Source: Candidatus Moraniibacteriota bacterium (GTDB taxonomy: Bacteria > Patescibacteriota > Minisyncoccia > Moranbacterales > UBA2206). From it: 64,000 nucleotides of DNA. Below, one piece after another: positions 7,244 through 22,903 of the stretch (its first letter is position 1; every line of letters starts with the position of its first letter). The stretch spans positions 103,411-167,410 of the forward strand of contig JAUSNP010000003.1 of NCBI GenBank assembly GCA_030645735.1, written 5' to 3'. The notes below the pieces were generated by a model. That model did no database searches. It saw only the letters and a program-made list of their open reading frames with translations, and had not been told where the DNA came from. Position numbers and translations under genes: made by a program.

Positions 7244-8524
7244 ATGTTTAATGTTTTTCTATTGCTAGTCGGTTATTTGCCTTTTCAATTAGCGCTGAAT
7301 CCAACGACAGGTATTGATTTGGCGTCTATCCGGGTTTTTATTCTGTTTTTATTTTTTGGGTGGCTGGCGCAAGGACTAAAAAAGAAAAACATCCGATTAA
7401 ACAATAATCTACAAACCTGGCTCGTGGCGTCTTTTCTGTTTCTGAATTTATTCTCTGCATTGGTAGCGAAAAATTCGGATTGGTCAATGCGGAAACTGTT
7501 GTTTTTGTTTTCCATTTTTCCGATTTATTTCGTAGCCAGTCAATTAATTACGAATAAGGAGCGATTATATAGGGCTGTTAAGACAATAGTCGCCAGTGCG
7601 GCAGTGGTTGCTGGCGTCGGAATTGTGCAATTTTTACTGCAATTTATAATTGGCTGGAAGTCCACCTATACTTTTTGGGCTAAATTTGTAATTATGCCCT
7701 TTTTGGGGAGTAGCTTCGGTGAAGCAGTCTTGAAAAATCCGAGTTGGTTGGTAAATATTGGTGGCAAAACCTATTTGCGCGCCACTTCGCTTTTCCCTGA
7801 TCCACATATGCTAGCTTTTTATTTGGGCTTGGCATTGCCACTCGCCTTTTGGTTTATGCTGCACACAGACAAAAGAAAAAAACTAGCTATATTTGGATGC
7901 GGGTTGATTTTATTGGCGGATTTGTTAACCTTTTCTCGTGGCGGGTATGTGGGCATATTTTCTGGTTTGGTTTTTGTGGGGATATTTTTCTGGAAAAAAA
8001 CAGAACGGAAATATAAAGTTGTAACAAGCATTGTTTTACTGATGGGCTTATCGATTTTGTTAGTTCCATCGCCAATTTCACAAAGATTTCTTTCCAGTTT
8101 TGATTTGCAAGAAGGCTCAAATCAGGGTCGAATGGCTATGTGGGGAAAAGCCATGGAGGTGACGCTGGAGCACCCGTTGCTAGGCGTGGGGATTGGCAAT
8201 TATCCGCTAGAAGTGAATCCCGTGGCAACGTATCGCGATCCAATTTATGCCCACAATACTTATTTAGATGTTGCCGCGGAAACTGGCCTCATAAATATGC
8301 TTGTGTGGATTGGAATTTTGCTGGTGACGGGGTTGGGTTTTTTGCAAAAATCTAAGCAAGAAAACCTTTTCTTTTTCAGTGCAATTAGTTTGGTTATTTT
8401 TTCGGCGCATTCTTTGGTTGAAACCGCCATCTATTCGCCAGTAGTGCTAACTTTGTTTTTGATTATTTTAAGCCTGTATAATTTTCCCATCGTAGAGACG
8501 AAACAAAATGAAAAAGTTATTTAA
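7244..8524 (+). CDS. O-antigen ligase (Wzy_C) family membrane protein
   Basis: Polytopic membrane protein. Periplasmic-loop motif MAMWGKAMEVTLEHPLLGVGIGNYP...AHNTYLDVAAETGL is typical of WaaL/Wzy_C. Confidence 0.65.
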   Translation: MFNVFLLLVGYLPFQLALNPTTGIDLASIRVFILFLFFGWLAQGLKKKNIRLNNNLQTWLVASFLFLNLFSALVAKNSDWSMRKLLFLFSIFPIYFVASQLITNKERLYRAVKTIVASAAVVAGVGIVQFLLQFIIGWKSTYTFWAKFVIMPFLGSSFGEAVLKNPSWLVNIGGKTYLRATSLFPDPHMLAFYLGLALPLAFWFMLHTDKRKKLAIFGCGLILLADLLTFSRGGYVGIFSGLVFVGIFFWKKTERKYKVVTSIVLLMGLSILLVPSPISQRFLSSFDLQEGSNQGRMAMWGKAMEVTLEHPLLGVGIGNYPLEVNPVATYRDPIYAHNTYLDVAAETGLINMLVWIGILLVTGLGFLQKSKQENLFFFSAISLVIFSAHSLVETAIYSPVVLTLFLIILSLYNFPIVETKQNEKVI

Positions 8525-9683
8525 CCTAGAAAATTTTATATTTATCACTATAATTTTCCTGCCACTGTATCTAGTAAAGGTAGTTATTTTGGGTGTGCCA
8601 AGCAATCTTTTTGAGTTGATAGTAGTGTTTGCGATATTAGCGTTCGCTATGGCATCTGTGGGCTCAAAAATTGAGCTACAAGACTATAAAAAGTATTTTA
8701 TACCCATAGTGCTGATAATCTCTGGATTGCTCATTTCAACCATCTACAATGACGCCTACCGCGTCGGATTTGGCATAATAAAGAGCTGGTTTGTGGTTCC
8801 AATCATCTTTGCTTTCGTGGCCGTGAAGACCTTGGGCAAGGCAAAAAAAGAAACTGTCTTGAATGTCATATATCTGTCAGCTCTGGGGGTGGCGTGTGTT
8901 TCTCTGGCCTATTTTTTTCTAGGTTTAGTAACTTTTGATGGTCGCCTACAAGCCTTTTTCAACTCACCGAATTATTTGGCGATGTTTTTGACACCAGCGA
9001 TTGTGATTGGCGTGGCTAAGCTGGCTGAAAATAAAAAATTGTATGGCACTTCCTTACTAATTATGCTTATTTCGCTGTATTTAACATTTTCATATGCTGC
9101 TTGGTTGGCATTATTTAGCTCATTGGTAATTCTATTTTTAAAAAAAGAAGTAGAGACGAGGCACGGCCTCGTCTCTACGAAGATTTCAAAAAAACTTTTT
9201 TGGGTAGCGTTTTTTGGTTTATCGATTATTTTTTTACAGATTGGCTCTGATAAAATGCAAAACCTAACGCATGTAGATAGCAGGTCATCATTAGCATCGC
9301 GCGCGATGATTTGGCGCTCAGCTGGCAAGATGATTGCGGACAATCCAATTGTCGGCATCGGTCCAGGTAATTTTCAAAACAAATATTTGGCATATCAACA
9401 ATATTTCCCACCCTATTTGGAGTGGGCCGTGCCACAGCCACATAATATTTTCTTAGCTTTTTGGTTGCAAGCAGGGATTTTGGGATTAGTAGGTTTTATA
9501 TATCTGATGTCTGTGTGGTTTATTGATGTATTTAGAAAAAAAGATGACGTAAGTATTGTTTGCATGGCAATTATGACGGGCATTATAATCCACGGACTAT
9601 TTGACACGACATATTTTAAAAATGATTTAGCCGTTATTTTCTGGCTAATCTTTTTCCTTGGTATAAAAAATCGTAATAGCTAA
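8508..9683 (+). CDS. O-antigen ligase (Wzy_C) family membrane protein, paralog 2
   Basis: MIWRSAGKMIADNPIVGIGPGNFQNKY...HNIFLAFWLQAGILGLVGF. Overlaps the upstream ligase gene. Confidence 0.7.
   Translation: MKKLFNLENFIFITIIFLPLYLVKVVILGVPSNLFELIVVFAILAFAMASVGSKIELQDYKKYFIPIVLIISGLLISTIYNDAYRVGFGIIKSWFVVPIIFAFVAVKTLGKAKKETVLNVIYLSALGVACVSLAYFFLGLVTFDGRLQAFFNSPNYLAMFLTPAIVIGVAKLAENKKLYGTSLLIMLISLYLTFSYAAWLALFSSLVILFLKKEVETRHGLVSTKISKKLFWVAFFGLSIIFLQIGSDKMQNLTHVDSRSSLASRAMIWRSAGKMIADNPIVGIGPGNFQNKYLAYQQYFPPYLEWAVPQPHNIFLAFWLQAGILGLVGFIYLMSVWFIDVFRKKDDVSIVCMAIMTGIIIHGLFDTTYFKNDLAVIFWLIFFLGIKNRNS
9150..9178. repeat. Hairpin GTAGAGACGAGGC-acg-GCCTCGTCTCTAC inside the ligase CDS
   Basis: 13-bp perfect stem. 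Same terminal 9-mers as the hairpins at 2140 and 30061. Translated as VETRHGLVST. Confidence 0.4.
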
Positions 9684-9831: not shown

Positions 9832-11166
9832 ATGAGAAAAGCATTTTCGGTATTAATGCTTATCAGTATGTATTTTCTGTCCATGATTTCTGATGTCTCT
9901 GCATATTCGTATCTGCAGAACTTCGATGCCCTTTCGGTCGGATCTCTTTCCGGACAATTGGCCGAGATTCAAGCAACTGGTAACCCAATCATATCCGAAA
10001 ATGCATCTTATACGCCAGGAAATGCTCTGCGGCTGTATAAAAACAATTCTGATTTTAATTTCAATTCAACTGCACGATTGTATTTTGGGAACGGAAATTT
10101 CTATTCCCCCTTTACTTCTGCAGACGACACGATATCTTTCTGGTATTATCCGTCATATATCCGATATCAAACAAATACCTGTAATTTGCTGAGCATGGTC
10201 GGTTTGTATGGCCAAACTTCTGATTTGAAAATTATGGGAGTTCGCGCCACCTCGACCAATAACGGAACCTTTTATCTTGATTCTAGTAATTGTACCAAGG
10301 GAACTGCTATCGGCAATGTGTCTGCTGGCAATTGGTACTTCATAGAGGTAAAATTCGATTTTACCAATCACAACTACAAAGCTCGGATTAATGGTGGCGA
10401 TTGGTCTGTGCCTCTGCCTATTAGCTCTATTGTAAATCATATCTATTCATTAACATTTCAAACTGCCGGCACAGCCGTCATTAGTTCTGATTATTATGTT
10501 GATAATCTGATTGTGGGGCCCCTTGGCACGGCCTTCCCTGATCCACAATTGACTATTGTTCGTAATCCAGCAGAAGGCGGTGGCGTGTCGGATTATCCGG
10601 CTGGTGAGAACATTTATTGCGGAATTGATAATTATGAAATTTGCCAGGCCTCATTTGAATTAAACACGGAGGTCACCCTTGATGCCTATCCCAATGCTGA
10701 CTGGGCTTTCGCTTACTGGGATGATGGAACTACATGTCTCTATGACAACCCGTTGACAGTGACCATGGACAGCGCAAAGACGCTGACGACAAAGTTCTTT
10801 AAGACATTTACGAATAGAGTCGGAAACTTCCAAGCCAGTGTAGGATCCACAATAGACACTGGTCAGTGTGTTCCGTATGTTCGCTACGAAACTGATGTTC
10901 CGATATATGGAGATGCCTACACATGGTATGGGCAAGCAGTTTCTGCAAATTACGCAACAAGTGCAACCGTTCCCAGGGTTGGATCCATCATCGTGTTTGC
11001 CATTCAAAGCGGCATGACTTACGGGCATGTTGGAATCGTAACCTCAATTAATGGGAGCAGTTTGGGCATACGAAGCCAAAATTGGAATAATGATGAAAAA
11101 GTAAGTGACGACACTATCGATGTAAGTGGCTACACAATTATTGGGTATATCTACTATACGCCATAG
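9832..11166 (+). CDS. Secreted cell-wall hydrolase: N-terminal lectin-like domain + C-terminal CHAP domain
   Basis: Signal peptide. C-terminus GQCVPYVRYE...GHVGIVTSINGS carries the CHAP catalytic Cys and His motifs. Confidence 0.7.
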   Translation: MRKAFSVLMLISMYFLSMISDVSAYSYLQNFDALSVGSLSGQLAEIQATGNPIISENASYTPGNALRLYKNNSDFNFNSTARLYFGNGNFYSPFTSADDTISFWYYPSYIRYQTNTCNLLSMVGLYGQTSDLKIMGVRATSTNNGTFYLDSSNCTKGTAIGNVSAGNWYFIEVKFDFTNHNYKARINGGDWSVPLPISSIVNHIYSLTFQTAGTAVISSDYYVDNLIVGPLGTAFPDPQLTIVRNPAEGGGVSDYPAGENIYCGIDNYEICQASFELNTEVTLDAYPNADWAFAYWDDGTTCLYDNPLTVTMDSAKTLTTKFFKTFTNRVGNFQASVGSTIDTGQCVPYVRYETDVPIYGDAYTWYGQAVSANYATSATVPRVGSIIVFAIQSGMTYGHVGIVTSINGSSLGIRSQNWNNDEKVSDDTIDVSGYTIIGYIYYTP

Positions 11167-12299: not shown

Positions 12300-13454
12300 T
12301 TATTTGCCTTGCAATGTTATGCGGTAGAGTTTGCCGTCGATTTTGTTTACGAAAAACAAGATACTTTCATCCGGACTGAGGAATAGGTTAGTGGCATCAT
12401 AAGTTTGAGTTATTTTGTCCAAATCAACCAGGCGAGTTTTTTCACCAGTGGTGGTGTTGACCATCCAAAAAGTGTCACTGGTAGTAATTTTGTTGTCATT
12501 GTAATCATTAGGCATCGTAGCTCCCTCCGGAATTGAGCTAGGTAGGGCATAATAAATATTCTTATTGCCCTTGGACCATGCACACTTGGAAACTAAAGTT
12601 GGGATGCCAAGGGTTTTGTATTCTCCACCAAAACTATTCATAACTCCCAATTGCAGTTTTGATCCGCCAGCTGTTTCCACGCTACTTTCTAAAAGCATAT
12701 TGCCATCATCGCTCCAAAGATAGTCAGCGCCAAATTTTTCACTGGCAAGCGTTTTTAGTTCGCCGCCAAAGACTGGCACAGTTTGCAGAAGAGTTTTGTT
12801 AAATGAATCAGCTTTGCTCCAGAAAGAAATCAGACCAGTCTTGGGAATAGCGGCAATGGCAATGTCTTTCATCGAAAGATCAATTATTTTTTTCCAATTG
12901 GCGCCATCTGGGTCAGCGACATTCAGAGTTCTTTCTTTGGTTTTAGCATCAAAATATTTATAGATTATTTTGTTGTTATTTTGCCAGACAACTGAATCTA
13001 AATTATCTTTCAATTGCACGCCTTTGTTTTGAGCATAGTCGTAGGAAAAGAATTTGGATGACAGACTGTTGATTGGAAAACCAGAAATAACACGCGACTT
13101 GTCGGGTGACCAATTGATACTGGACAAGTTGACGAGTTCTTTGCCGGAAATTGTTTTTTTGGCTTCGCTAAGGATGTCAATTTCAAAAGCTTTGCCCGTG
13201 GTTTTAGAATAATATCTGACAGCATCGCCATTAATAGAAAGTGTTGGCGACAAAACGGCCTCATCAACTAGGACTGCGATTTGGGCAGCTTTTTTGGCAA
13301 GTATATCTGGCGCTATTGCCTCAATAGCATCTGACGGAACATTGGAATTTGAAATGGGGGTCTTTTTGAAGGAAAGAATGTACACGCCCCAAAGAAGTAG
13401 AACCACAACAAGAGCAATTGAGGAAATTAGAAAAATTTTTTTAGGCAAAGACAT
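12300..13454 (-). CDS. Secreted beta-propeller protein (TolB-like repeats)
   Basis: N-terminal signal anchor. Repeated WSPD / SPDES...DGKLYRI motifs resemble TolB-type propeller blades. Confidence 0.5.
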   Translation of the reverse strand: MSLPKKIFLISSIALVVVLLLWGVYILSFKKTPISNSNVPSDAIEAIAPDILAKKAAQIAVLVDEAVLSPTLSINGDAVRYYSKTTGKAFEIDILSEAKKTISGKELVNLSSINWSPDKSRVISGFPINSLSSKFFSYDYAQNKGVQLKDNLDSVVWQNNNKIIYKYFDAKTKERTLNVADPDGANWKKIIDLSMKDIAIAAIPKTGLISFWSKADSFNKTLLQTVPVFGGELKTLASEKFGADYLWSDDGNMLLESSVETAGGSKLQLGVMNSFGGEYKTLGIPTLVSKCAWSKGNKNIYYALPSSIPEGATMPNDYNDNKITTSDTFWMVNTTTGEKTRLVDLDKITQTYDATNLFLSPDESILFFVNKIDGKLYRITLQGK

Positions 13455-13484: not shown

Positions 13485-14366
13485 TTAGTTGTGACAAGCA
13501 TAACAGATATCCCAATGATCTTCTTCTACTGCATAAATATTGCCCGACGTATCTTTGTACATAGCTGCTCCGTCGGAGCGAGTTCCTGCAGGTGTATAAT
13601 TATTTTTAACATAAGAAGTCAAGCTGCTATTTAATCCCAAGTCAGCTTTGTAGCCATTGGCATGATTATAGATAGTGGTAGATGCATGGCCGTCTTCTGA
13701 GCCACCAGTTAGAGTGAGATTGCAATTGCAAGCCGTTTTTAAATTGGCAAGGCCGTTTATAGTTGACTCACGCAAGCCGGCAGTGCTAGTACAACCAGTT
13801 CCTTGTCCCACAGGGCAAGAATTAGGCCTATTAACACTAATGCCAGCCCCTGCTAGACGTTGTCTGACATCTGCCTCAATCCCAGTTGGCATCACAGGTT
13901 GCTTAGCTGGCACCGTTGTTGTCGGCGCTGAACTGGAAATAATATTCCCTCTATTCAAGCGCACTAAATTCGGATTGATTTCATATAATAGGAGAAAAGA
14001 AACTAACGCTAAAATCAAACCCACAATGGCATCAGTAATCACCCCCTTAGCCTTTTCCGCGCTAACCACATTGGCCGCTGACATAATATACATATAACCG
14101 CCGATAGTTATCATGAGCAAGGCCGAAACTCCCACTGCCCAAATCCCAAACTTGTAAACACCGGCAATATAAGTATAGAAATTGCTACCTGTATCAACAC
14201 CCGGGATTTGCTCCATCGGCACATAGGAAAGATTAAGAGCCGCCAAGGTTATGGTTGGGAAGAGTGATGGGATAAACAATAATAAAAACTTTTTCAAAGT
14301 AGGTATTATATAAAAATATTTATTAAATTTAAAATTGACTAGATAGCGCACAAAGCAATATCGCAA
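13485..14366 (-). CDS. VirB2/TrbC-pilin-like two-TM N-domain fused to a Cys-rich C-terminal domain (paralog 1)
   Basis: The N-terminal 120 aa are near-identical to the downstream paralog (signal peptide plus two hydrophobic helices). The C-terminus has more than 8 Cys (CPVGQGTGCTS...CNCN...CYACHN). The true start is probably the TTG near 14297, at the LKKFLLLFIPSLFPTITLAA signal peptide. Confidence 0.5.
   Translation of the reverse strand: MRYCFVRYLVNFKFNKYFYIIPTLKKFLLLFIPSLFPTITLAALNLSYVPMEQIPGVDTGSNFYTYIAGVYKFGIWAVGVSALLMITIGGYMYIMSAANVVSAEKAKGVITDAIVGLILALVSFLLLYEINPNLVRLNRGNIISSSAPTTTVPAKQPVMPTGIEADVRQRLAGAGISVNRPNSCPVGQGTGCTSTAGLRESTINGLANLKTACNCNLTLTGGSEDGHASTTIYNHANGYKADLGLNSSLTSYVKNNYTPAGTRSDGAAMYKDTSGNIYAVEEDHWDICYACHN
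13909..14265. repeat. 357-nt direct repeat, copy 1 (about 96% identical to 14904..15260)
   Basis: The two sequences were aligned by eye. They encode the shared pilin-like N-domain of the two tandem paralogs. Confidence 0.85.
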
Positions 14367-15304
14367 GCGTAGTCTTTAACGGTGCACATATTAGTTTTGG
14401 GGTCCGGGCCAGGATTTATGGGACAAGCCCATTTTGGAATATTGTCGGCCTTACAATCAACACTAAGTGAGTTTGGGTTTGAGTTGTCGGCACAACAATT
14501 ATAAGAAGCGGCAGCCATTTCAACTGCAGTTACGCTTGGATAGTTAAATTGTTTGATTGAATTTAATTTAGCTTCAAATGTTGCCACTCCAGCCTTGATG
14601 TTTGTCTCTGGATCGAACAAATTGCCAAATCGTGTGTCGCTAGAACATGACCCAGATGGCATGACTTGCATAAGTCCGCAGGCGCCAACAGGGCTAACTG
14701 AACTTGGGTCGCCCGTGGATTCATGGCAAATAATGGATCTAATTAGTTTCGCAGGTACGGAAGCTGTTTGATATTTATTTATAAGCGCCTCATATTGTCC
14801 AAGATTGGTGCAGGTCTTCTCGCAACTGCCAGTGCAAATATCAGCCAAGTTTGAAGCTGCGTTAGTACACGGCGGACTTTTTTGTCCAACTGGAACTGGA
14901 GCCGGCACTGTCGTCGTCGGTGCTGAACTGGAAATAATATTCCCTCTATTCAAGCGCACTAAATTCGGATTGATTTCATATAACAAGAGAAAAGAAACTA
15001 ACGCTAAAATCAAACCCACAATGGCATCAGTAATCACCCCCTTGGCCTTTTCCGCGCTAACCACATTGGCCGCTGACATAATATACATATAACCGCCGAT
15101 AGTTATCATGAGTAAGGCTGAAATCCCCACTGCCCAAATCCCAAACTTGTAAACGCCGGCAATGTAAGTATAGAAATTGCTACCCGTATCAACACCCGGG
15201 ATTTGCTCCATCGGCACATAGGAAAGATTAAGAGCCGCCAAGGTTATGGTTGGGAAGAGTAATAAAATAAAGATAGCAATGGATAGAAATTTTTTCTGAT
15301 TCAC
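14339..15304 (-). CDS. VirB2/TrbC-pilin-like N-domain fused to a lytic transglycosylase (SLT, VirB1-like) domain (paralog 2)
   Basis: Signal peptide plus two TM helices, then a C-terminal ES...GACGLMQVMP SLT catalytic motif. Confidence 0.6.
   Translation of the reverse strand: MNQKKFLSIAIFILLLFPTITLAALNLSYVPMEQIPGVDTGSNFYTYIAGVYKFGIWAVGISALLMITIGGYMYIMSAANVVSAEKAKGVITDAIVGLILALVSFLLLYEINPNLVRLNRGNIISSSAPTTTVPAPVPVGQKSPPCTNAASNLADICTGSCEKTCTNLGQYEALINKYQTASVPAKLIRSIICHESTGDPSSVSPVGACGLMQVMPSGSCSSDTRFGNLFDPETNIKAGVATFEAKLNSIKQFNYPSVTAVEMAAASYNCCADNSNPNSLSVDCKADNIPKWACPINPGPDPKTNMCTVKDYACDIALCAI
14904..15260. repeat. 357-nt direct repeat, copy 2
   Basis: See 13909..14265. Confidence 0.85.
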
Positions 15305-15341: not shown

Positions 15342-18300
15342 TTACACCCGATTTTGTTTTGGGAAAAGTGAAAACATTGTGCGAACAAGAAATAGTATCA
15401 ACCCCATAGTCAATATGACTCGGAAAAGGAAATTGATATAGCTTGGGATGGCCGAGAATAAGCTCGCCATAATTTTTTGTTGTGGCGTTCTAGCTTTCCC
15501 AATAACTCGGGAACCGCTAAGCGTATCAGTCATTTGAATTTCTATAGATTGAGAGACATTTTTTTCATAGAAGGCTGTTTGCGGAACCTCCCAGGTAGCA
15601 TTCAGCGCTCGTTTGACTAGATTTGTTTGAGTATAAAGTGAACCAAAGGTAATGTTATATTTCTCGCCTGTTGGTTTTTCGGCGACAAATACAAGCGTAC
15701 CATCATCCTTGATTTCAGTTATGCCAAGATCAGCCATATTAGCAGGCGTCACTGGCACGCCATCGAAAAACCAAGTCTTGTTTTCATAGCCAGAATTTGC
15801 TATGGGTTCACCATTAAGAAACCAAGCTTCATTTTTATGGAAAAGCGGATTGAGGGTTGGTTTGATTTCAATAGTTTCTCCTGTTAGAGCTTCAAATAAA
15901 TTATCACTAAGATCTGGCCACATATTTTCATTTACACCGTCTTTTTCATGATCAGGGTTTGCATTGATAGGATCAACATAGAAGCCAAGAAGCGTTGGGG
16001 CGCAAGTGCTAAGGTTAACGGATTTAAGAGCTATGGCTGGATCAGTGACTTTGAAGTTCTTGATTAAACTGGTTTTTTCACCTGTCACTGTGTTGGCAAC
16101 ATTAAGAGACAGGGTGTGCGGGGTGTTTCTTTCGGCAAGAATTGGGAAATAGGCTATATTTTTGTCAGTTTCTGCAATCGGTTTATTATCAAATGACCAG
16201 AGAAACTCATAATCCTTTAGTTTGTCTGGTTCCACAATAAACTTAGCCCCCATTATTTCATTTTTTGCCACAGGACAAGTGATGGCATCAAGATTATTTT
16301 CATCTGGAGCTGTCACACATCGCTCGGTTGTTGTGTCTAGGCTGACAGCTAGAGTGTCTGACACAGTTGTTGAAAAAATTTGGAGGGAGTTAGCGGACAT
16401 TTGAATAGGGATAATAACAGTTCCGACACCTTCCTTCTTTTTTGCACCGACGCCATCAACTGCTTTCAGCACAACTTTAGCATAAAAAAGATTGGGGTTT
16501 TCACTGGCTATTGCTTTAGCCTCACGTAAAAATTGTTCTGTAAAATTCAATTTCATTTGAAGACTATCTAGGCCAATGCCGGATAATTTTTTAACACCAG
16601 TTTCAGGTAGTGTGAGTAAATGCCAATCTTTGTCGGTGGCTGCAATATCAGAGCTGAGATAAATTTGCCAAGCATAATTCAGAAAGTCCTTATTGCCCTC
16701 GCTAACTATAGATGAGTTTATGTTGAGTTGATCTGCATTATCACCGATTGAATTTACTGGTGCGTTAGGAAAATAGGAAAGATTAATTTCCATTTTTTGA
16801 GCAGCAGCTCCTTCACTTGGCTCAAGAATATTAGCCATTAGACAATCATTTATGCTCTGCACACCCTTGCTTGCTGTGAAAATTTTGCCTGTTTGCGTAG
16901 CTGCAGACAAGGCTGGGTTATCAGCCAGTTCTTGTGTTGTGTAGGTTGCATATGTCCCATCGCTTTTTTTGTAACCGATTAACTCTGGGTGTTCTGTTTT
17001 GTTCACAGTTTCATATGAATCGGATAAATATGTGTATCCAGAACCGTCAAGACTTTCGGCGAATACCTTAGTTTTATCTTCCTTGTAATGTTTTGTTTGG
17101 GTGGAAACGGTGATTGTCACTATTTCGGCTGGGCCAGTCCCATGATCAGCAATAACATAAGGTCCATCTGAATATGTCTTAGTGTAAACAGTTTCATTAA
17201 CAGATTTATAATAAACATTAACATAAGTCGCCTCATGAGTTATTGGGTCTAATTTCGGCAAACCAGTAGCGCTGTCCAGTATCGGAGTAGTTTCTAATGG
17301 GCTGGTTAAATGGTATGTTGGATCCTCAGTCACAACAGAAGGCGCTTCTTCTCGTTTGGTTTTTTCGGGATCAGCTGTACACATATTTTTTGGCAATGCC
17401 CACATGGTCATATAGGAAGAGTCTTGGTAACCAGTAGCTTCCACAGAAATACCTTCAACCACCACACCGACCTTATCGCCTGTGGCATAATTCCAATTGA
17501 AAGTGAATTTTCCGAGTCCAGCCACAGCGGCTTCATCTACTGTGCCGCTACCTGCCGTGTCTTTGGAAGCTGGATTGGTGCGCCAAAACTCTTCTTCTTT
17601 CAGGGAAAATCGATTATCACCTCCAGCCGTGGTTTCCCCAGGAGCATTGGGAAAAAGATGTTCACAACTTGGAAACTCATATTCATTGCCACTAGAAAAA
17701 TTGTGCAAATAGCAGTGTTCATTCTTTGATGGCGTGCTTCTTTGATCATCGCCTCCAATGACGGCTTTATAGCTATCATCATCCCCAGTTTTATTTTTAT
17801 ATTGATTGTCCAAGGTGCAATAAGCTGGTTTTTGATCAGCGCTTACGGAGGCGTCTTTACAAAGAGGCGCGTCTTTACCTAGGGCTTGTTGCCAGTCAAA
17901 ACCGCCATTAGCAATAAGTCTCATAGCCTCAATTTTGTAATCTTCAACATCGATTCTTTTGTCATTATTCCAGTCTGTATTGCCATCTTTAGTTTTGTGG
18001 CCTTCACTGTCAGTTGCATCTGGTTTGCCAGTGTTATGTTGCAGATACCAAGTATAATATTGCACATTGGGGTCATTCATAAAATAAGTGGCAATAGCAC
18101 TGGCCGTGACTTTTTCTCCCGGAGTTGGATTTGTAGGCGTAAATGTTATGGCGACCTGAGGCGGTTCTTTTTTCTGACGAGCGGTATTCATCATCTGAAC
18201 TGTGTTTTTCGTTTCAGTTGAGCTTGCGCCAGATTCTTCTTTTACGGCAGCCATAAGTTTGTCGCGCACGGCATTGCCAACTTCGTCACCAGTGATATTG

Positions 18301-18386
18301 GTCTCGGCCAAGGCATATGGCAGACTCATTGAGAAAAGTATGTTGAAAATTAAAACAAAGACAAAAAGTTTTTTTATAAAATGCAT
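15342..18386 (-). CDS. Large (1014 aa) surface protein: N-terminal signal peptide, C-terminal TM anchor
   Basis: Long ORF with signal peptide MHFIKKLFVFVLIFNILFSMSLPYALA and C-terminal hydrophobic anchor LFRVILTMGLILFLVRTMF. Thr/Ser/Asn-rich, no recognisable catalytic motif. Inside the T4SS-like cluster. Confidence 0.55.
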   Translation of the reverse strand: MHFIKKLFVFVLIFNILFSMSLPYALAETNITGDEVGNAVRDKLMAAVKEESGASSTETKNTVQMMNTARQKKEPPQVAITFTPTNPTPGEKVTASAIATYFMNDPNVQYYTWYLQHNTGKPDATDSEGHKTKDGNTDWNNDKRIDVEDYKIEAMRLIANGGFDWQQALGKDAPLCKDASVSADQKPAYCTLDNQYKNKTGDDDSYKAVIGGDDQRSTPSKNEHCYLHNFSSGNEYEFPSCEHLFPNAPGETTAGGDNRFSLKEEEFWRTNPASKDTAGSGTVDEAAVAGLGKFTFNWNYATGDKVGVVVEGISVEATGYQDSSYMTMWALPKNMCTADPEKTKREEAPSVVTEDPTYHLTSPLETTPILDSATGLPKLDPITHEATYVNVYYKSVNETVYTKTYSDGPYVIADHGTGPAEIVTITVSTQTKHYKEDKTKVFAESLDGSGYTYLSDSYETVNKTEHPELIGYKKSDGTYATYTTQELADNPALSAATQTGKIFTASKGVQSINDCLMANILEPSEGAAAQKMEINLSYFPNAPVNSIGDNADQLNINSSIVSEGNKDFLNYAWQIYLSSDIAATDKDWHLLTLPETGVKKLSGIGLDSLQMKLNFTEQFLREAKAIASENPNLFYAKVVLKAVDGVGAKKKEGVGTVIIPIQMSANSLQIFSTTVSDTLAVSLDTTTERCVTAPDENNLDAITCPVAKNEIMGAKFIVEPDKLKDYEFLWSFDNKPIAETDKNIAYFPILAERNTPHTLSLNVANTVTGEKTSLIKNFKVTDPAIALKSVNLSTCAPTLLGFYVDPINANPDHEKDGVNENMWPDLSDNLFEALTGETIEIKPTLNPLFHKNEAWFLNGEPIANSGYENKTWFFDGVPVTPANMADLGITEIKDDGTLVFVAEKPTGEKYNITFGSLYTQTNLVKRALNATWEVPQTAFYEKNVSQSIEIQMTDTLSGSRVIGKARTPQQKIMASLFSAIPSYINFLFRVILTMGLILFLVRTMFSLFPKQNRV

Positions 18387-18395
18387 AGAAATGAA

Positions 18396-19055
18396 TTATT
18401 TAAAAATATGAATTATATAGGCATCTAAAAAGGTCATAAAAATCAAACTCATTAAAAATGAATATACAAATGAGCGACTTTTGTAAGTTGCGATTCCACC
18501 AGTAAAGGCCAGGATAATGGTTGGAGCCAGATGCCAGTCAAGAGAGCCTGTAGAGAGTGTAAATAAAACAAAAACCAGAGCCTGAATAATCGCTGAGGCC
18601 AGACTGAATTTTTTGGCGAGAGTGAAGAGGACAAATCCTTTGAAGAAAAAGTCATTGATAAATAAAAGCAAAGCCACTAGTACAAGTTCATTTAAAAGAA
18701 AGGCCCAGAAGTAGGTGCCTAGATAGGCCGGAATGGTATACTTGTTGGCAAAATCAAAGAATTGAAACAAGATAGAGACACTTAGAACGGAGACGACTAG
18801 CATCATTGCCGCCCAAACCAAGCCAAGTCTGGGATTTTGCAAATTGAGACCAAAATCACGCAAGTCTTTTTTGAGCACAAGTTTGATGTAGAGTGCAGGC
18901 AAGATAAACAAGAAAAGCAGATATTTACTGAAGTCTTGCAAAACCCCTTGCACTGGGAAAAAAACAAGCAGTATTATGCAAATCAAAACAACCACAGAAC
19001 TAATGATTTCTGTCTTCCAGTCAGAGAGGAATTGTGTAGTGGTATTGCTTTGCAT
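18396..19055 (-). CDS. Polytopic membrane protein (possibly degenerate CPBP/Abi-type)
   Basis: 219 aa, about 6 TM. Weak CPBP-like motifs (NELVLVALL, SLDWH). Confidence 0.4.
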   Translation of the reverse strand: MQSNTTTQFLSDWKTEIISSVVVLICIILLVFFPVQGVLQDFSKYLLFLFILPALYIKLVLKKDLRDFGLNLQNPRLGLVWAAMMLVVSVLSVSILFQFFDFANKYTIPAYLGTYFWAFLLNELVLVALLLFINDFFFKGFVLFTLAKKFSLASAIIQALVFVLFTLSTGSLDWHLAPTIILAFTGGIATYKSRSFVYSFLMSLIFMTFLDAYIIHIFK

Positions 19056-19126: not shown

Positions 19127-19714
19127 TTAAGCGACTTGTTGTGCAGTTGTAGTTGTATATTCTGAATCCGGATTTGGTTTTCGAGTTTGATTTTGCTGAG
19201 CCAATTCTTGCGCCTCTTCTCTTGCTTTGTCAGCAGCTACTTTTCTTTCAACGAGGGTTAGCCAGATAATGATAATAACTGCGAGCGTTTCTAGTGGTAG
19301 TACGTCAATGCCAGGAATAAATTCTATGATAGTTGTTCCAGCTAAAACTGAGATTTTCTTTGCAATTTTGCGTCCAACCTTGGAATTGCCGGATGCGCTG
19401 GTAATAAACATTGCAACAGCAATCACAATTGATGCCATGCCAGTTGATACAAATATTAATACAACGCCAAGTCCTCCCAATGCAATTAGTGCTGTATCAA
19501 CTAAATCAAGAATGTCCTTTAGTGCGGCAGCTGCCAAGGCAAGCCCAAATACCCAATCAGTTATAAGTTCAAGATGGGTCATGAGGGACCCGATGTTTTT
19601 AGCTGCATCAATGTTTTTCTTAGCATTTTGCAATGAATTTTTCAATGATCCAGCGCGGGAAGCGCTTAGGTTATCTTTGTTTTGATGTTCTGTTTGTTCG
19701 CTCATAATTTTCAC
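19127..19714 (-). CDS. Small membrane protein of T4SS-like cluster
   Basis: 195 aa with 3-4 hydrophobic helices and a charged C-terminal tail. Confidence 0.45.
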   Translation of the reverse strand: MKIMSEQTEHQNKDNLSASRAGSLKNSLQNAKKNIDAAKNIGSLMTHLELITDWVFGLALAAAALKDILDLVDTALIALGGLGVVLIFVSTGMASIVIAVAMFITSASGNSKVGRKIAKKISVLAGTTIIEFIPGIDVLPLETLAVIIIIWLTLVERKVAADKAREEAQELAQQNQTRKPNPDSEYTTTTAQQVA

Positions 19715-19788: not shown

Positions 19789-21639
19789 CTATTCTTCATC
19801 CTCGAAATCTTTTTTAGCCTGTTCTATTTCCAATAACTGCGACGGGTCAGTGGTGATGATCTGATCTTCGCTATAGGACGCCACCACTTTGATGGCCACA
19901 TGCTTGGTGCCAGCGAAGAAGATGCCTTCTCCCACATTGCTTTCCAGTAACAAGAATTTTTCCTGATCAGTTAGATAGAATGTGTCAGCAATCACATCAA
20001 TCGCGGCGGGAGATTGTTTTAGAAGAAGCTGAATTGATGAGTTGGTCACAATTGGCTTGCCATAGCGCGAGGATAGAAAATCATTCACATCCTGCGTAAT
20101 GGTGGTAAGTCCAGTATAATATTTTCTGCATCTTTTCGCAATTCCAAAAAGGAAAGATGCGGCGTCGTCTGATTTCATCATCACCCAAGCTTCATCTACC
20201 AAAACCATTCGCTTTTTGACATTGGTGCGCATTTCATTCCAAATAAATTGCAAAACGATATACATAGCAATAGGTCGCAATTCATCTTCCATATCGCGAA
20301 TATTGAAGACCACTAGCTTGTTGTCAGCCTTGATGTTGGTGGTGTTGTTGAGAAATCCAGCAAAAATTCCTTCCGTATATTTTTCTAGGCGAATAGCCAA
20401 GTCCTCACTGCCATCCATGTTGCGCAAAACATTGTAGAGGTCTGACATAGTTGGATAGGATTCTTTGGGCAATTCATTGAAATTGGTTTGGCCGGTGATG
20501 TCGCGAATTGCATAAGTTTCGTGTACGGCTCTGTCCAAAATTGAATCTTCCTCTGGAGTGATATTTCCCAGCATCAAATGCAAAAGTCCAAGCAGTCCGG
20601 CAATGTTGTTGCGCAAAATGTCTTCCGGATCTTCATCTTCGGCAATTTTTGGCAAATCAAAGGGATTCAAATGATTGGTTGAATTCAGGGAAATCTTGAT
20701 GAAAGCTCCGCCAACTGTGTCACACAGATGCTTATATTCATTTTCTGGGTCAATGATGATGACATCGGTGCCAACCATCAAAGAGCGCAAAACTTCCAAT
20801 TTAACAGTATAACTTTTGCCACCTCCGGATTTGGCGAAAACCACCATATTGGCATTTTCCATTTTGAAGCGGTCAAAAAGAACCAAGCTATTATTATGTC
20901 GGTTGATGCCATAAAGAATGCCTTCATCATTGGAAAGGCTGGATGAAACAAAAGGAAATGTTGTAGAAAGCGGGGCAGAATTCATGTTGGTTCCAATATT
21001 CAACTCATCATTGGCCAGTGGAATAGTTGAATTGAAGCCTTGTTCCGTTTTGAAGATAGACGGCTTGATATAAACCAATTGTGCTTCCAGAATTGATTCG
21101 ATAGCGCGCGTAGTCTTGTCCAATTCTTTTTCATCTTGGCCATAGATAGTTATGTATAATCCAAAACGGAAAAACTTTTCTGTGCCTTGTTGCAGTTTGT
21201 CGCGCAACTCATCAATGTCTTGCATAGCGGTTTCCAAGGATGGATCGCGAATCATTCCATTTTCTTGCTCAATGTGGAGCTGGGATTGCACTTGGGTCGC
21301 GCTTTTTCGGAGTGTTTTCAAGATATCCACGGTTTCAATCGGGTGCACGAACATGGAAATGTCGATGGACATATCAATGTTGATGATGGGTGAAAACCAA
21401 TTGCTGTTCAAAAATCTAGGATAAGAGATGACAAAAATTGTGCGCGCCAAAGTCTCGCCCAATTGGATGGACTTGGGCAAAATCTTAATAGCGGCTGGCG
21501 CCAAAAGATCTTGCAATTTGGCCACACCCTCTTGATAGAATTTTTCTGACTCAATCACATCATCAAGAATCACCGCTTTTTTCGGTTGAGTTGAGGGATC
21601 TTTTTTGCTTAGGAAATCAAACATAATTGTCAGAACCAC
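19789..21639 (-). CDS. Type IV secretion ATPase VirB4/TrbE/CagE family
   Basis: Walker A (VVFAKSGGGKSYTVKLE) and Walker B (MVLVDEAWVMM). The C-terminal domain architecture is typical of VirB4. GTG start at 21639, with an alternative ATG at 21624. Confidence 0.8.
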   Translation of the reverse strand: MVLTIMFDFLSKKDPSTQPKKAVILDDVIESEKFYQEGVAKLQDLLAPAAIKILPKSIQLGETLARTIFVISYPRFLNSNWFSPIINIDMSIDISMFVHPIETVDILKTLRKSATQVQSQLHIEQENGMIRDPSLETAMQDIDELRDKLQQGTEKFFRFGLYITIYGQDEKELDKTTRAIESILEAQLVYIKPSIFKTEQGFNSTIPLANDELNIGTNMNSAPLSTTFPFVSSSLSNDEGILYGINRHNNSLVLFDRFKMENANMVVFAKSGGGKSYTVKLEVLRSLMVGTDVIIIDPENEYKHLCDTVGGAFIKISLNSTNHLNPFDLPKIAEDEDPEDILRNNIAGLLGLLHLMLGNITPEEDSILDRAVHETYAIRDITGQTNFNELPKESYPTMSDLYNVLRNMDGSEDLAIRLEKYTEGIFAGFLNNTTNIKADNKLVVFNIRDMEDELRPIAMYIVLQFIWNEMRTNVKKRMVLVDEAWVMMKSDDAASFLFGIAKRCRKYYTGLTTITQDVNDFLSSRYGKPIVTNSSIQLLLKQSPAAIDVIADTFYLTDQEKFLLLESNVGEGIFFAGTKHVAIKVVASYSEDQIITTDPSQLLEIEQAKKDFEDEE

Positions 21640-21746: not shown

Positions 21747-22427
21747 TTATTTCAATTCTAGTTCTTCAATATTCCCAATCTTTGTATCATTAAAAATATT
21801 CGGGTTGTAGGAGTTGTACATCAATTCGATCAATTCTTGAGTTTTGAGGGGTGTCATGCGAGCGCCAATGCCAGATAGTGAGGCGGAAATGTGGTCAACT
21901 CTTTGAAAGAGCTGGTTTTTGTAAGTTTCAAAGTCCTCTCTTTTGTGCGTGATGTCCTTTTTAGCACTGCTGAAAAGATTGCCCAAAAAACTGCGGTCTT
22001 GATTTTCAACTGGAGCAAATGGCACAATCACATAAAAACTTTTGTCCATAATGTTGGACACAGAAACTAATTGGCGGATGAAATTTTTGTATTCATAAAT
22101 CTGCAAACGCAAAAGCTCGCTGTCCTGCTCTTTTTCTTTTTTCTCGACATATTCAATATACTTATCAATATTCATTCGGCGCGAGCTGATCAAAATTTGA
22201 ATCGGAAAGTCCAAGGAATTCAAGAAATTTTGATACTGATTGATGATAGCTTCTTGTTCGTCGGATGATTTCAAATCAAAGTTGATGGCTGACACGGCTA
22301 AAACTGCTCGCAAGGCGCCACTTTTTAGCACAATTACATCTTCCTTGATTTCAGCCACATCCAAAAACTGCTGACTGGGATTAGTCGTGGTTTGTTTGGT
22401 TATCTTGGGTGAATTTAGTGTTTCCAT
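21747..22427 (-). CDS. Hypothetical protein (possibly a separately encoded VirB4 N-terminal-like domain or T4SS accessory protein)
   Basis: 226-aa cytoplasmic ORF directly upstream of VirB4. The combined length (226+616 aa) matches full-length VirB4 proteins. Confidence 0.4.
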   Translation of the reverse strand: METLNSPKITKQTTTNPSQQFLDVAEIKEDVIVLKSGALRAVLAVSAINFDLKSSDEQEAIINQYQNFLNSLDFPIQILISSRRMNIDKYIEYVEKKEKEQDSELLRLQIYEYKNFIRQLVSVSNIMDKSFYVIVPFAPVENQDRSFLGNLFSSAKKDITHKREDFETYKNQLFQRVDHISASLSGIGARMTPLKTQELIELMYNSYNPNIFNDTKIGNIEELELK

Positions 22428-22903
22428 TATCTTTTATTTATTTCTAATAATTTGGAAATATCTTCAATTTTCTGTCTGGAAATTTCTTTTTTTGGAACAA
22501 TGGCGGCAGCGGCAGCTTTTTTCTGCGCGGCTGTTTTTGGCTTGGCGGGCCTGGAAAAGGCTTTTATGTCAGCCACTCTTCTCCAGACATACATTTTGGG
22601 TTTGGTGAAAAATGAGACCGCCGACAAAAGAAACAGTATGAATGGTTGGCCGTGTGGCTTGAAAAAAGCCAGCGCACCAAAAATCATAGTCAAGATGACG
22701 GCAACGATAATAAACAAGGACATATCAAGGATGCTCCAAGCCACCAACAAAATCACGCCTTCCGCTCCCAACCAGCCCAATTGCTTGGCGGTCAACGGCC
22801 CGACGATCTTATCCTCTATGTCAATAAATTGTGGGACGTTGAACATGCCCATACTTTTTTTAAAATCACAAATTACAAAATACAAATAACAAACAAATTT
22901 CAA
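22427..22903 (-). CDS. Small two-TM membrane protein, VirB3/PrgI-like
   Basis: 158 aa with two adjacent TM helices following a short cytoplasmic N-terminus. Position upstream of VirB4 matches Gram-positive PrgI/VirB3. Confidence 0.35.
   Translation of the reverse strand: MKFVCYLYFVICDFKKSMGMFNVPQFIDIEDKIVGPLTAKQLGWLGAEGVILLVAWSILDMSLFIIVAVILTMIFGALAFFKPHGQPFILFLLSAVSFFTKPKMYVWRRVADIKAFSRPAKPKTAAQKKAAAAAIVPKKEISRQKIEDISKLLEINKR

Follow-up and report, generated by a model that had tools for sequence, protein, structure and literature searches.

A pilin-family module as common carrier of exchangeable, predicted wall-hydrolase heads at a type IV secretion locus of Candidatus Moranbacteria

Introduction

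In the one species of Patescibacteria tested, a type IV secretion system (T4SS) and the VirB2-like 'pilins' that belong to it are required for epibiotic growth (PMC10633639, PMC11665869). The pilins so far described are short and stand-alone, and occur in divergent arrays with a mean of 25% and a maximum of 54% identity (PMC12102498; PMC12857230; PMC10633639). VirB1-type hydrolases, by a survey of the whole phylum, are mostly absent or unlinked to virB4, and they appear dispensable for pilus biogenesis (PMC12102498). The stretch of DNA considered here, 64 kb of contig JAUSNP010000003.1 and referred to below as the window, is a Patescibacterial (Candidatus Moranbacteria) chromosome region near dnaA. 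Among its T4SS genes are two tandem genes, here termed A and B, the products of which share a near-identical pilin-family module at their N-termini and continue into quite different C-terminal heads, that of gene B a predicted lytic transglycosylase and that of gene A probably a metallopeptidase of Hedgehog/DD-peptidase type. This suggests that many wall hydrolases counted as 'missing' are parts of fusions with the pilin-family module itself, and it qualifies the published inference on missing VirB1 functions.

How does the locus compare with what is already described? The nearest relatives are the Patescibacterial VirB2-like pilins themselves (PF18895; Wang et al. 2023, PMC10633639; Quinonero-Coronel et al. 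2025, PMC12102498), with which genes A and B share, to judge by the relatives of the module, the sequence family of the N-module, and also its signal peptide and two hydrophobic helices, the arrangement as tandem paralogues, and the position beside VirB4, TrsD and PrgI and near dnaA. Unlike the described pilins, the window modules each carry a head of predicted enzyme type, 139–186 amino acids in length, and are 99% identical to each other in protein sequence. Functionally closer, perhaps, are the VirB1-type hydrolases of Gram-positive systems (PrgK of pCF10, TraG of pIP501 and the CD419/TrsG class), which are likewise membrane-anchored, extracytoplasmic and encoded in T4SS loci, with transglycosylase and peptidase activities. 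In PrgK and TraG the SLT and peptidase domains are combined in one protein (PMC12102498) with a simple transmembrane anchor, whereas in the window they would be split over two genes with a pilin-family anchor, and the putative peptidase is LAS/Hedgehog-like in contrast to the CHAP, NlpC/P60 or M23 domains of the Gram-positive hydrolases. Since the two activities would be on separate genes, A and B would be a functional analogue of PrgK and TraG and not a member of their class.

The third comparison is with the Hedgehog (Hh)/DD-peptidases (LAS, MEROPS M15A-like, including bacterial Hedgehog-like proteins; Roelink 2018, PMC6027127), the defining motif of which is H-x6-D with H-x-H; the ligands in Sonic hedgehog (Shh) are H141, D148 and H183, and E177 is catalytic (PMC6027127). 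With these the head of gene A shares H-x6-D and the conserved His that precedes it, a Glu three to four residues ahead of the last motif, a cell-wall peptidase context and, to go by the ranking of weak Foldseek matches, perhaps the fold class. The components, i.e., the T4SS_pilin module, SLT and the LAS peptidase, are already known. What is new is a pilin-family module as the common carrier of exchangeable, predicted wall hydrolases in a fixed T4SS slot, with concerted evolution at the level of the module. No description of a fusion between a pilin module and a wall hydrolase was found in the literature searched. Judging by their accession numbers, the adjacent families PF18895 and PF18896 suggest that database curators may have seen the architecture.

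Two tandem genes and the repeat that they share

Genes A and B lie on the minus strand, as do all of the features of them given here. Gene B (14339–15304) encodes 321 amino acids from a GTG start and comprises a signal peptide, a T4SS_pilin-like two-helix module, a linker and an SLT head. Gene A (13485–14297) encodes 270 amino acids, most likely from the TTG at 14297, and comprises a signal peptide, the near-identical module, a linker and a Hedgehog/DD-peptidase-like head; this 270-residue form is identical to the NCBI protein Q7T51_01135 (P0012) from a Candidatus Moranbacteria metagenome-assembled genome. A start at 14366, from mechanical delimitation of the open reading frame (ORF), was rejected, as the gene would then overlap gene B. 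The gap of 41 nucleotides ahead of gene A holds a promoter-like TTTAAA-17-TATAAT (14305–14333; 10/12 in a consensus scan), a resemblance that is not in itself evidence of function, and a scan of the surroundings of the two genes gave inverted repeats and terminator-like sites at chance level only.

By blastn, 13905–14268 and 14900–15263 form a direct repeat of 364 nucleotides without gaps and with 16 mismatches, an identity of 95.6% that is far above chance expectation for a window of 64 kb. This is essentially the repeat that a first-pass annotation had placed at 13909–14265 and 14904–15260, with 357 nucleotides and 96% identity. Blastn and codon analysis place the first copy (14900–15263) on codons ~15–135 of gene B and the second (13905–14268) on codons ~11–131 of gene A. 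The repeat starts inside the signal peptide, with its last eight or so residues (LFPTITLA), and spans the end of that peptide, the mature N-segment, both hydrophobic helices and the linker to ...APTTTVPA; its end is the exact end of the Pro/Thr-rich linker, and past that point the two proteins are unrelated. Outside it, the two signal peptides have different n- and h-regions: that of gene B (15236–15304) is MNQKKFLSIAIFILLLFPTITLA, with cleavage predicted after TLA from sequence and hydropathy, and that of gene A (14241–14297) is MKKFLLLFIPSLFPTITLA.

When the mismatches are taken by codon, 14 of the 16 are synonymous. The two that are not are L/S, at the repeat's edge within the signal peptide, and I/V. 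Divergence by the Nei-Gojobori method is 0.18 at synonymous sites (dS) and 0.007 at non-synonymous sites (dN), and the ratio of ~0.04 implies strong constraint on the module.

The shared module

The N-module consists of a signal peptide, a mature N-segment that is conserved (Y-x-P-M-E-x-I-P-G), a pair of hydrophobic helices with a Lys-rich loop, and INPxL. Hydropathy places helix 1 of gene B at 15074–15151 and helix 2 at 14975–15037 (overall 14975–15151), with the short Lys-rich loop AANVVSAEKAKG between them at 15038–15073. The corresponding positions in gene A are 14079–14156 and 13980–14042 (overall 13980–14156), with the loop at 14043–14078, and there INPNL, a motif near-invariant in the family, stands directly after helix 2 at 13965–13979. 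The linkers follow: VRLNRGNIISSSAPTTTVPAPVPVGQ in gene B (14882–14959), within which the repeat ends, and VRLNRGNIISSSAPTTTVPA in gene A (13905–13964), where it ends at the last linker codon. The two hydrophobic segments and the KAK loop after the signal peptide are apparent from hydropathy, and an AlphaFold2 model is a helical hairpin with helices at residues 39–72 and 77–107 (predicted local distance difference test, pLDDT, 65); the model was computed on the N-module of gene A, which is near-identical to that of gene B, and gene B itself was not the input.

To what family does the module belong? In an exhaustive search at E up to 1e-3, a profile of it, on which gene B scores 217.8 bits and gene A 216.5 bits, retrieved 35,504 cluster representatives; among the best 147, PF18895 is matched by 123 (best E 1.8e-25), and relatives with 50–67% identity (P0003, P0005, P0006, P0008) carry that family. 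Membership of the T4SS_pilin (PF18895, VirB2-like) family is supported by these sequence comparisons, which bear out the pilin-like character given to this domain at first reading. The label 'VirB2-like' itself is owed to the Pfam family and to the way the literature uses it (PMC12102498), and canonical TrbC/VirB2 (PF04956) gave no match to the window proteins at E up to 10. That the module might be a simple signal anchor, which the first-pass annotation had named as an outcome that would undo its proposal, or an anchor of holin-endolysin type, was rejected as the primary label on grounds of family membership and conserved T4SS synteny.

Four proteins from outside the window (P0131, P0132, P0160 and P0243) have three or four tandem pilin-family modules per polypeptide. 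Three of them (P0131, P0132, P0243) end in an SLT-type head, with Pfam SLT confirmed for P0131 only, and the C-terminus of P0160 is a Cys-rich region without an assigned family. Concatenation of three or four modules ahead of one SLT head suggests that the modules associate side by side.

The two heads

Residues 176–274 of gene B (14483–14779) match the SLT catalytic domain PF01464 with 59.8 bits against a cut-off of 21.3 bits (E 2.3e-16). Its Glu-Ser motif, HES at 14717–14725, aligns with QES of E. coli Slt70 (1qsa; E 8e-5), the Glu of which is catalytic. As read from its sequence, the head is an SLT lytic transglycosylase and would cut the glycan strand, as the earlier assignment of an SLT domain to one of the two genes had it. 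The motifs noticed at that stage (GACGLMQVMP, and CNC and CYACHN in gene A) are all present. The count of at least eight cysteines for the other, 'Cys-rich', head has to be corrected: the head of gene A has six, and it is the SLT head of gene B that has 14.

'Cys-rich domain' is also not the best description for the head of gene A (13488–13904; 139 amino acids). It groups with other heads, borne by the same module family, that have the pattern GG-x-E..H...H-x-x-G-x-A-x-D ... H-x-H. Comparison by hhalign of its family with these H-x-H heads gave a probability of 99.2% (E 7e-20), with the H-W-D of gene A aligned on the H-x-H that its sister heads, borne by that module family too, have at this position. 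The His and Asp of H-x6-D (HANGYKAD, 13641–13664) do not vary among 24 heads and 61 homologues, the invariant His upstream of it (13686–13688) is conserved throughout the head superfamily, and gene A keeps Glu residues just ahead of its last motif (EEDHWD, 13509–13526). When the profile of the head superfamily was run against the Protein Data Bank (PDB), the N-domain of Sonic hedgehog was matched at E 2.5e-4, over 33 residues only, and the match falls on the zinc motif ...E-x-G-H...H-Y-x-G-x-A-V-D-I. The AlphaFold2 model of the gene A head has a pLDDT of 79, and all of its top 10 Foldseek matches in the PDB are Hedgehog N-domains. The head is thus probably a Hedgehog/DD-peptidase-like (LAS) domain, a metallopeptidase, and presumably would cut the peptide stem or cross-link.

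The substitution that gives H-W-D is common to the whole subfamily of gene A, with more than 60 close homologues, and this type is, to judge by its motifs and profile relationships, probably an unannotated variant of the Hh/DD-peptidase family. Homologues of the head number more than 2,600 (P0010–P0130 among the best). The nearest are secreted proteins of ~160 amino acids with 44–57% identity, and the named best hits are all from Nocardioides (Actinobacteria), which suggests transfer of the head family between bacteria of the candidate phyla radiation and Actinobacteria.

Modules track genomes, heads do not

Is the fusion of a pilin module to a head an oddity of this window? It had been called an unusual architecture, and within this phylum it is not one. 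When the 150 best representatives of the N-module family were surveyed, with a head defined as a C-terminal extension of at least 90 amino acids, 109 had a head, and these heads are mostly predicted peptidoglycan hydrolases. Clustering with low-complexity masking at E 1e-8 gave LAS/Hh-like heads (33 members), SLT (24), SLT_3 lysozyme-like (23), 'SISD' H..D..H-x-H (nine), 'EPWPPTV' M15-like (seven), NlpC/P60-like (seven) and GEGC (six) heads, and a few C39-like peptidases. Single-linkage clustering at E 1e-4 without masking was discarded, everything having merged via the linkers. The fusion of pilin module and head is widespread in the phylum.

Closer to the window, the gene order is common to eight Moranbacteria loci (L001–L008), in each of which a slot between the gene for a 1014-residue surface protein and that for a beta-propeller-like protein holds one or two 'N-module plus head' genes. 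In the window the slot has SLT and then the Hh-like head. In L008 it has the Hh-like head and then SLT, and in L002 a lysozyme-like GEGC..CGYSQ head followed by an EPWPPTV M15-like head. L001, L005 and L007 have a GEGC head alone, and L003, L004 and L006 SLT alone. (The sequences of L015 and L002 are one and the same, and so are those of L014 and L004.) It had been proposed that other genomes be checked for variable heads on the same N-domain, and the heads do indeed differ by locus. No stand-alone pilin-family ORF was found in the window or in up to 10 kb of flank of the related loci, and over that extent the only pilin-family genes at these Moranbacteria loci are the head fusions.

Where a genome has two slot genes, as three do, their N-modules resemble each other closely, at 95.6% nucleotide identity over 364 nucleotides in the window, 100% over 399 in L008 and 92.1% over 342 in L002, the copies in the last being separated by an intervening gene; the corresponding protein identities of the module cores are 99%, 100% and 94%. 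Between genomes the cores are 64–85% identical whatever the head type (64–84% where the heads are of one type), the clusters of the identity matrix are genomes and not head types, and module identity rises and falls with that of VirB4. The heads behave otherwise, and module and head similarities are incongruent between genomes: gene A of the window and its counterpart in L011 are 84% identical in the module and 54% in the head, with L012 both figures are 67%, and the Hh-like-head protein of L011 and the GEGC-head protein of L001 are 90% identical in the module with heads that are unrelated. The pattern is the signature of intragenomic homogenisation, probably by gene conversion or module re-duplication, together with a swapping of heads, probably through recombination within the linker. 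Given the dS of 0.18, the last homogenisation in this genome was not very recent. Of the early proposal of a recent duplication or ongoing conversion, the within-genome recombination or duplication stands, the pattern being present also in two other Moranbacteria genomes, and 'recent' does not.

Proposed function and alternatives

The reading that we favour, with moderate confidence and from the sequence evidence, is that the products of genes A and B are a pair of extracytoplasmic peptidoglycan hydrolases belonging to the Patescibacterial T4SS, equivalent to VirB1 and docked together by way of their shared module. After cleavage of the signal peptide, the module would insert in the membrane as a hairpin with its Lys-rich loop in the cytoplasm and the head outside, as the positive-inside rule would predict. 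The shared module would dock both enzymes at one place, be it the membrane complex of the T4SS or an assembly of the module itself, homo-oligomer or polymer, and together A and B would supply a 'VirB1' function with two activities, glycan-cutting and peptide-cutting, by which the wall of the producer itself, that of an attached cell, or both would be opened. Recombination within the genome (gene conversion or module re-duplication) would homogenise the modules and strong purifying selection then preserve them, and across lineages the heads would be exchanged by recombination in the linker.

Several results weigh against this reading. Genes A and B themselves score 16.5–18.9 bits on PF18895 T4SS_pilin, below its gathering threshold of 26.6. 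A PDB sequence search with the N-module profile gave no pilin and nothing relevant, and a Foldseek search with the N-module model (pLDDT 65) gave no pilin in the top 50, only generic helical hairpins, and is thus not informative. The head of gene A has no match in Pfam even at E 10, M15 and HH_signal included, and no NCBIfam family, and PDB sequence searches with the head alone or with a profile of the A type only gave no match; its fold matches are weak (E 0.3–0.9, TM-score 0.40–0.46). Its H-W-D has Asp for the canonical second His of H-x-H, and in this, in its lack of a Pfam match to the family, in its weak similarity by fold, and in its extra disulfide-type cysteines it is unlike the described Hh/DD-peptidases. 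In view of the missing canonical second His, the lack of a Pfam hit and the weak fold matches, it could be a non-catalytic binding domain. Homogenisation, for its part, is seen in three genomes, those with two slot genes (a metagenome scan yielded more orthologues of gene A and no further genome with two slot genes), and gene conversion is not separable by these data from repeated independent duplication with head replacement.

Might the heads instead be weapons? If the N-module is a polymerising pilin, the heads would sit on the T4SS filament, or be delivered through it, and attack the wall of the host and not that of the producer, the diversity of heads then being host-range adaptation or the outcome of conflict. 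This is plausible on several grounds. In the Saccharibacterial T4SS, where a pilus is suspected, VirB2-like pilins are indispensable (PMC10633639; PMC12857230). The head fusions are the sole pilin-family genes in the locus, and their heads, diverse and mostly muralytic by prediction, are swapped between lineages; heads of GEGC type are in every case followed by a partner gene specific to them, as expected of an immunity gene; and the head is predicted to be outside the membrane, where the ends of solved VirB2-type pilins also lie. The conserved, genome-tracking N-module with linker-exchanged heads, some of which have a dedicated downstream partner gene, is reminiscent of polymorphic toxin and other modular effector systems. 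However, the N-module is a small membrane hairpin, where those systems have a large secreted stalk, the heads are by prediction wall hydrolases, where polymorphic toxins have a broad toxin repertoire, and genes A and B are without a partner or immunity-like gene in the window. No pilus has been seen in this lineage, a head of 14–19 kDa on each subunit is hard to fit to a VirB2-type lattice, the concatenated proteins of three or four modules fit a membrane assembly better than a filament, and the module has no detectable similarity to solved pilins. On balance an armed filament of this kind is unlikely.

To be held with about equal doubt is a related proposal that the N-modules are the real and sole T4SS pilin subunits of the Moranbacteria locus, identical as both products enter one polymer. 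The product would then be either an enzyme-decorated 'drilling' pilus aimed at the host or a cleaved pilin-hydrolase precursor. In the precursor version, cleavage after the near-invariant INPxL, perhaps by the CPBP-family intramembrane protease of the locus, would release a mature pilin and a free VirB1-like enzyme. With head fusions as the only pilin-family genes found at the Moranbacteria loci, the reading of the 'pilins' changes in any case, to enzyme carriers or anchors or else to an enzyme-bearing filament.

The favoured reading of co-docked hydrolases includes homogenisation of the modules, and for this there is a simpler counterpart, namely that the module was copied with the acquisition of a second head and that the identity reflects recency alone, with neither selection to keep the copies alike nor gene conversion. 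The variation in identity from genome to genome (100%, 95.6% and 92%) is what events of different age would give, and synonymous differences are accumulating, as the dS attests. Neutral duplication would, however, need independent recent events in all three lineages with two slot genes, with the boundaries of the repeat falling every time at module plus linker. It is further at odds with the strong constraint on the module that dN/dS indicates, and with the fact that A-type and SLT heads alike occur both in the window and in L008, where they sit on modules that differ and are specific to the genome. We regard it as improbable, and more so than either of the pilus proposals.

It had also been suggested that the pair might be a cassette system in which heads are swapped on a common anchor. 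That heads vary between genomes on the same N-domain is borne out, but the swapping is evolutionary and no programmed switch is apparent. A dedicated mechanism placing heads onto one expressed anchor, after the manner of pilin antigenic variation or shufflons, could make use of the 364-nucleotide homology block that is common to both genes and adjoins different heads. Against it, both genes are complete, with their own start codon and signal peptide, gene A has the promoter-like site ahead of it, and a look around the two genes for promoterless silent cassettes, a recombinase or invertase gene or significant inverted repeats found none. The 16 fixed differences also argue against frequent exchange. 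Switching of this kind is very improbable and can be taken as effectively excluded. Excluded to the same effect, and the least credible of all, is duplication of a segment in assembly or binning, which the first-pass annotation had allowed for and which the source of the DNA in a metagenome-assembled genome and the 100% identity of the L008 repeat might bring to mind: with 14 of 16 differences synonymous, each copy in frame with a different complete downstream domain, and the same architecture in independent assemblies, the repeat is real.

The surrounding locus

The secretion genes of the window, on the same strand as A and B and 4.5–7.6 kb upstream of them, were identified by Pfam and NCBIfam. 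They are PrgI/VirB3 (22427–22903), a TrsD-like ORF corresponding to the N-part of VirB4 (21747–22427) and VirB4 (19789–21639). The TrsD-like ORF is kept just upstream of the gene for the VirB4 ATPase in all related loci, and a separate TrsD has likewise been observed elsewhere (PMC12102498). Next on that strand come genes for a 195-residue protein (19127–19714), a CPBP protease (18396–19055; NCBIfam MrtA-like, E 3.7e-11) and the 1014-residue surface protein (15342–18386), and beyond gene A lies the 384-residue beta-propeller-like gene (12300–13454), which is the downstream boundary of the slot in all related loci.

The CPBP-family intramembrane protease is conserved in seven of the seven loci that cover this part (L001–L006 and L008) and is a candidate for the processing of the pilin-family modules. 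Together with the two heads, the linker and the INPxL motif, it offers a target for work on how ultra-small bacteria breach a cell wall. The 1014-residue protein, which has a signal peptide, a C-terminal transmembrane anchor and no family match, is directly upstream of the slot in all eight loci with 38–47% identity and is possibly an adhesin or else a structural component of the T4SS. After every gene with a GEGC..CGYSQ head there is a gene for a protein of ~230 amino acids with a signal peptide and a C-terminal transmembrane anchor (10835–11530 in L001, 9290–9979 in L002, ~10867–11502 in L005 and ~3863–4417 in L007). This protein may be a head-specific accessory or immunity protein, and its gene is absent from the window and from the loci with SLT or Hh-like heads.

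The T4SS cluster, in a region that extends up to 28306, lies ~10–28 kb from dnaA (587–1975), rnpA and yidC, in agreement with the origin-proximal placement reported for Patescibacteria (PMC12102498). Just past it, on the opposite strand, a gene at 9832–11166 (plus strand) encodes a secreted protein of 444 amino acids that has an InlB B-repeat-like domain and, at its C-terminus, a CHAP domain; it is another candidate wall hydrolase. At 7244–9683 (plus strand) two adjacent Wzy_C (O-antigen ligase-like) genes follow two family 2 glycosyltransferase (GT2) genes and a flippase-like gene, and together these have the appearance of a small cluster for surface polysaccharide, placed between the origin and the T4SS.

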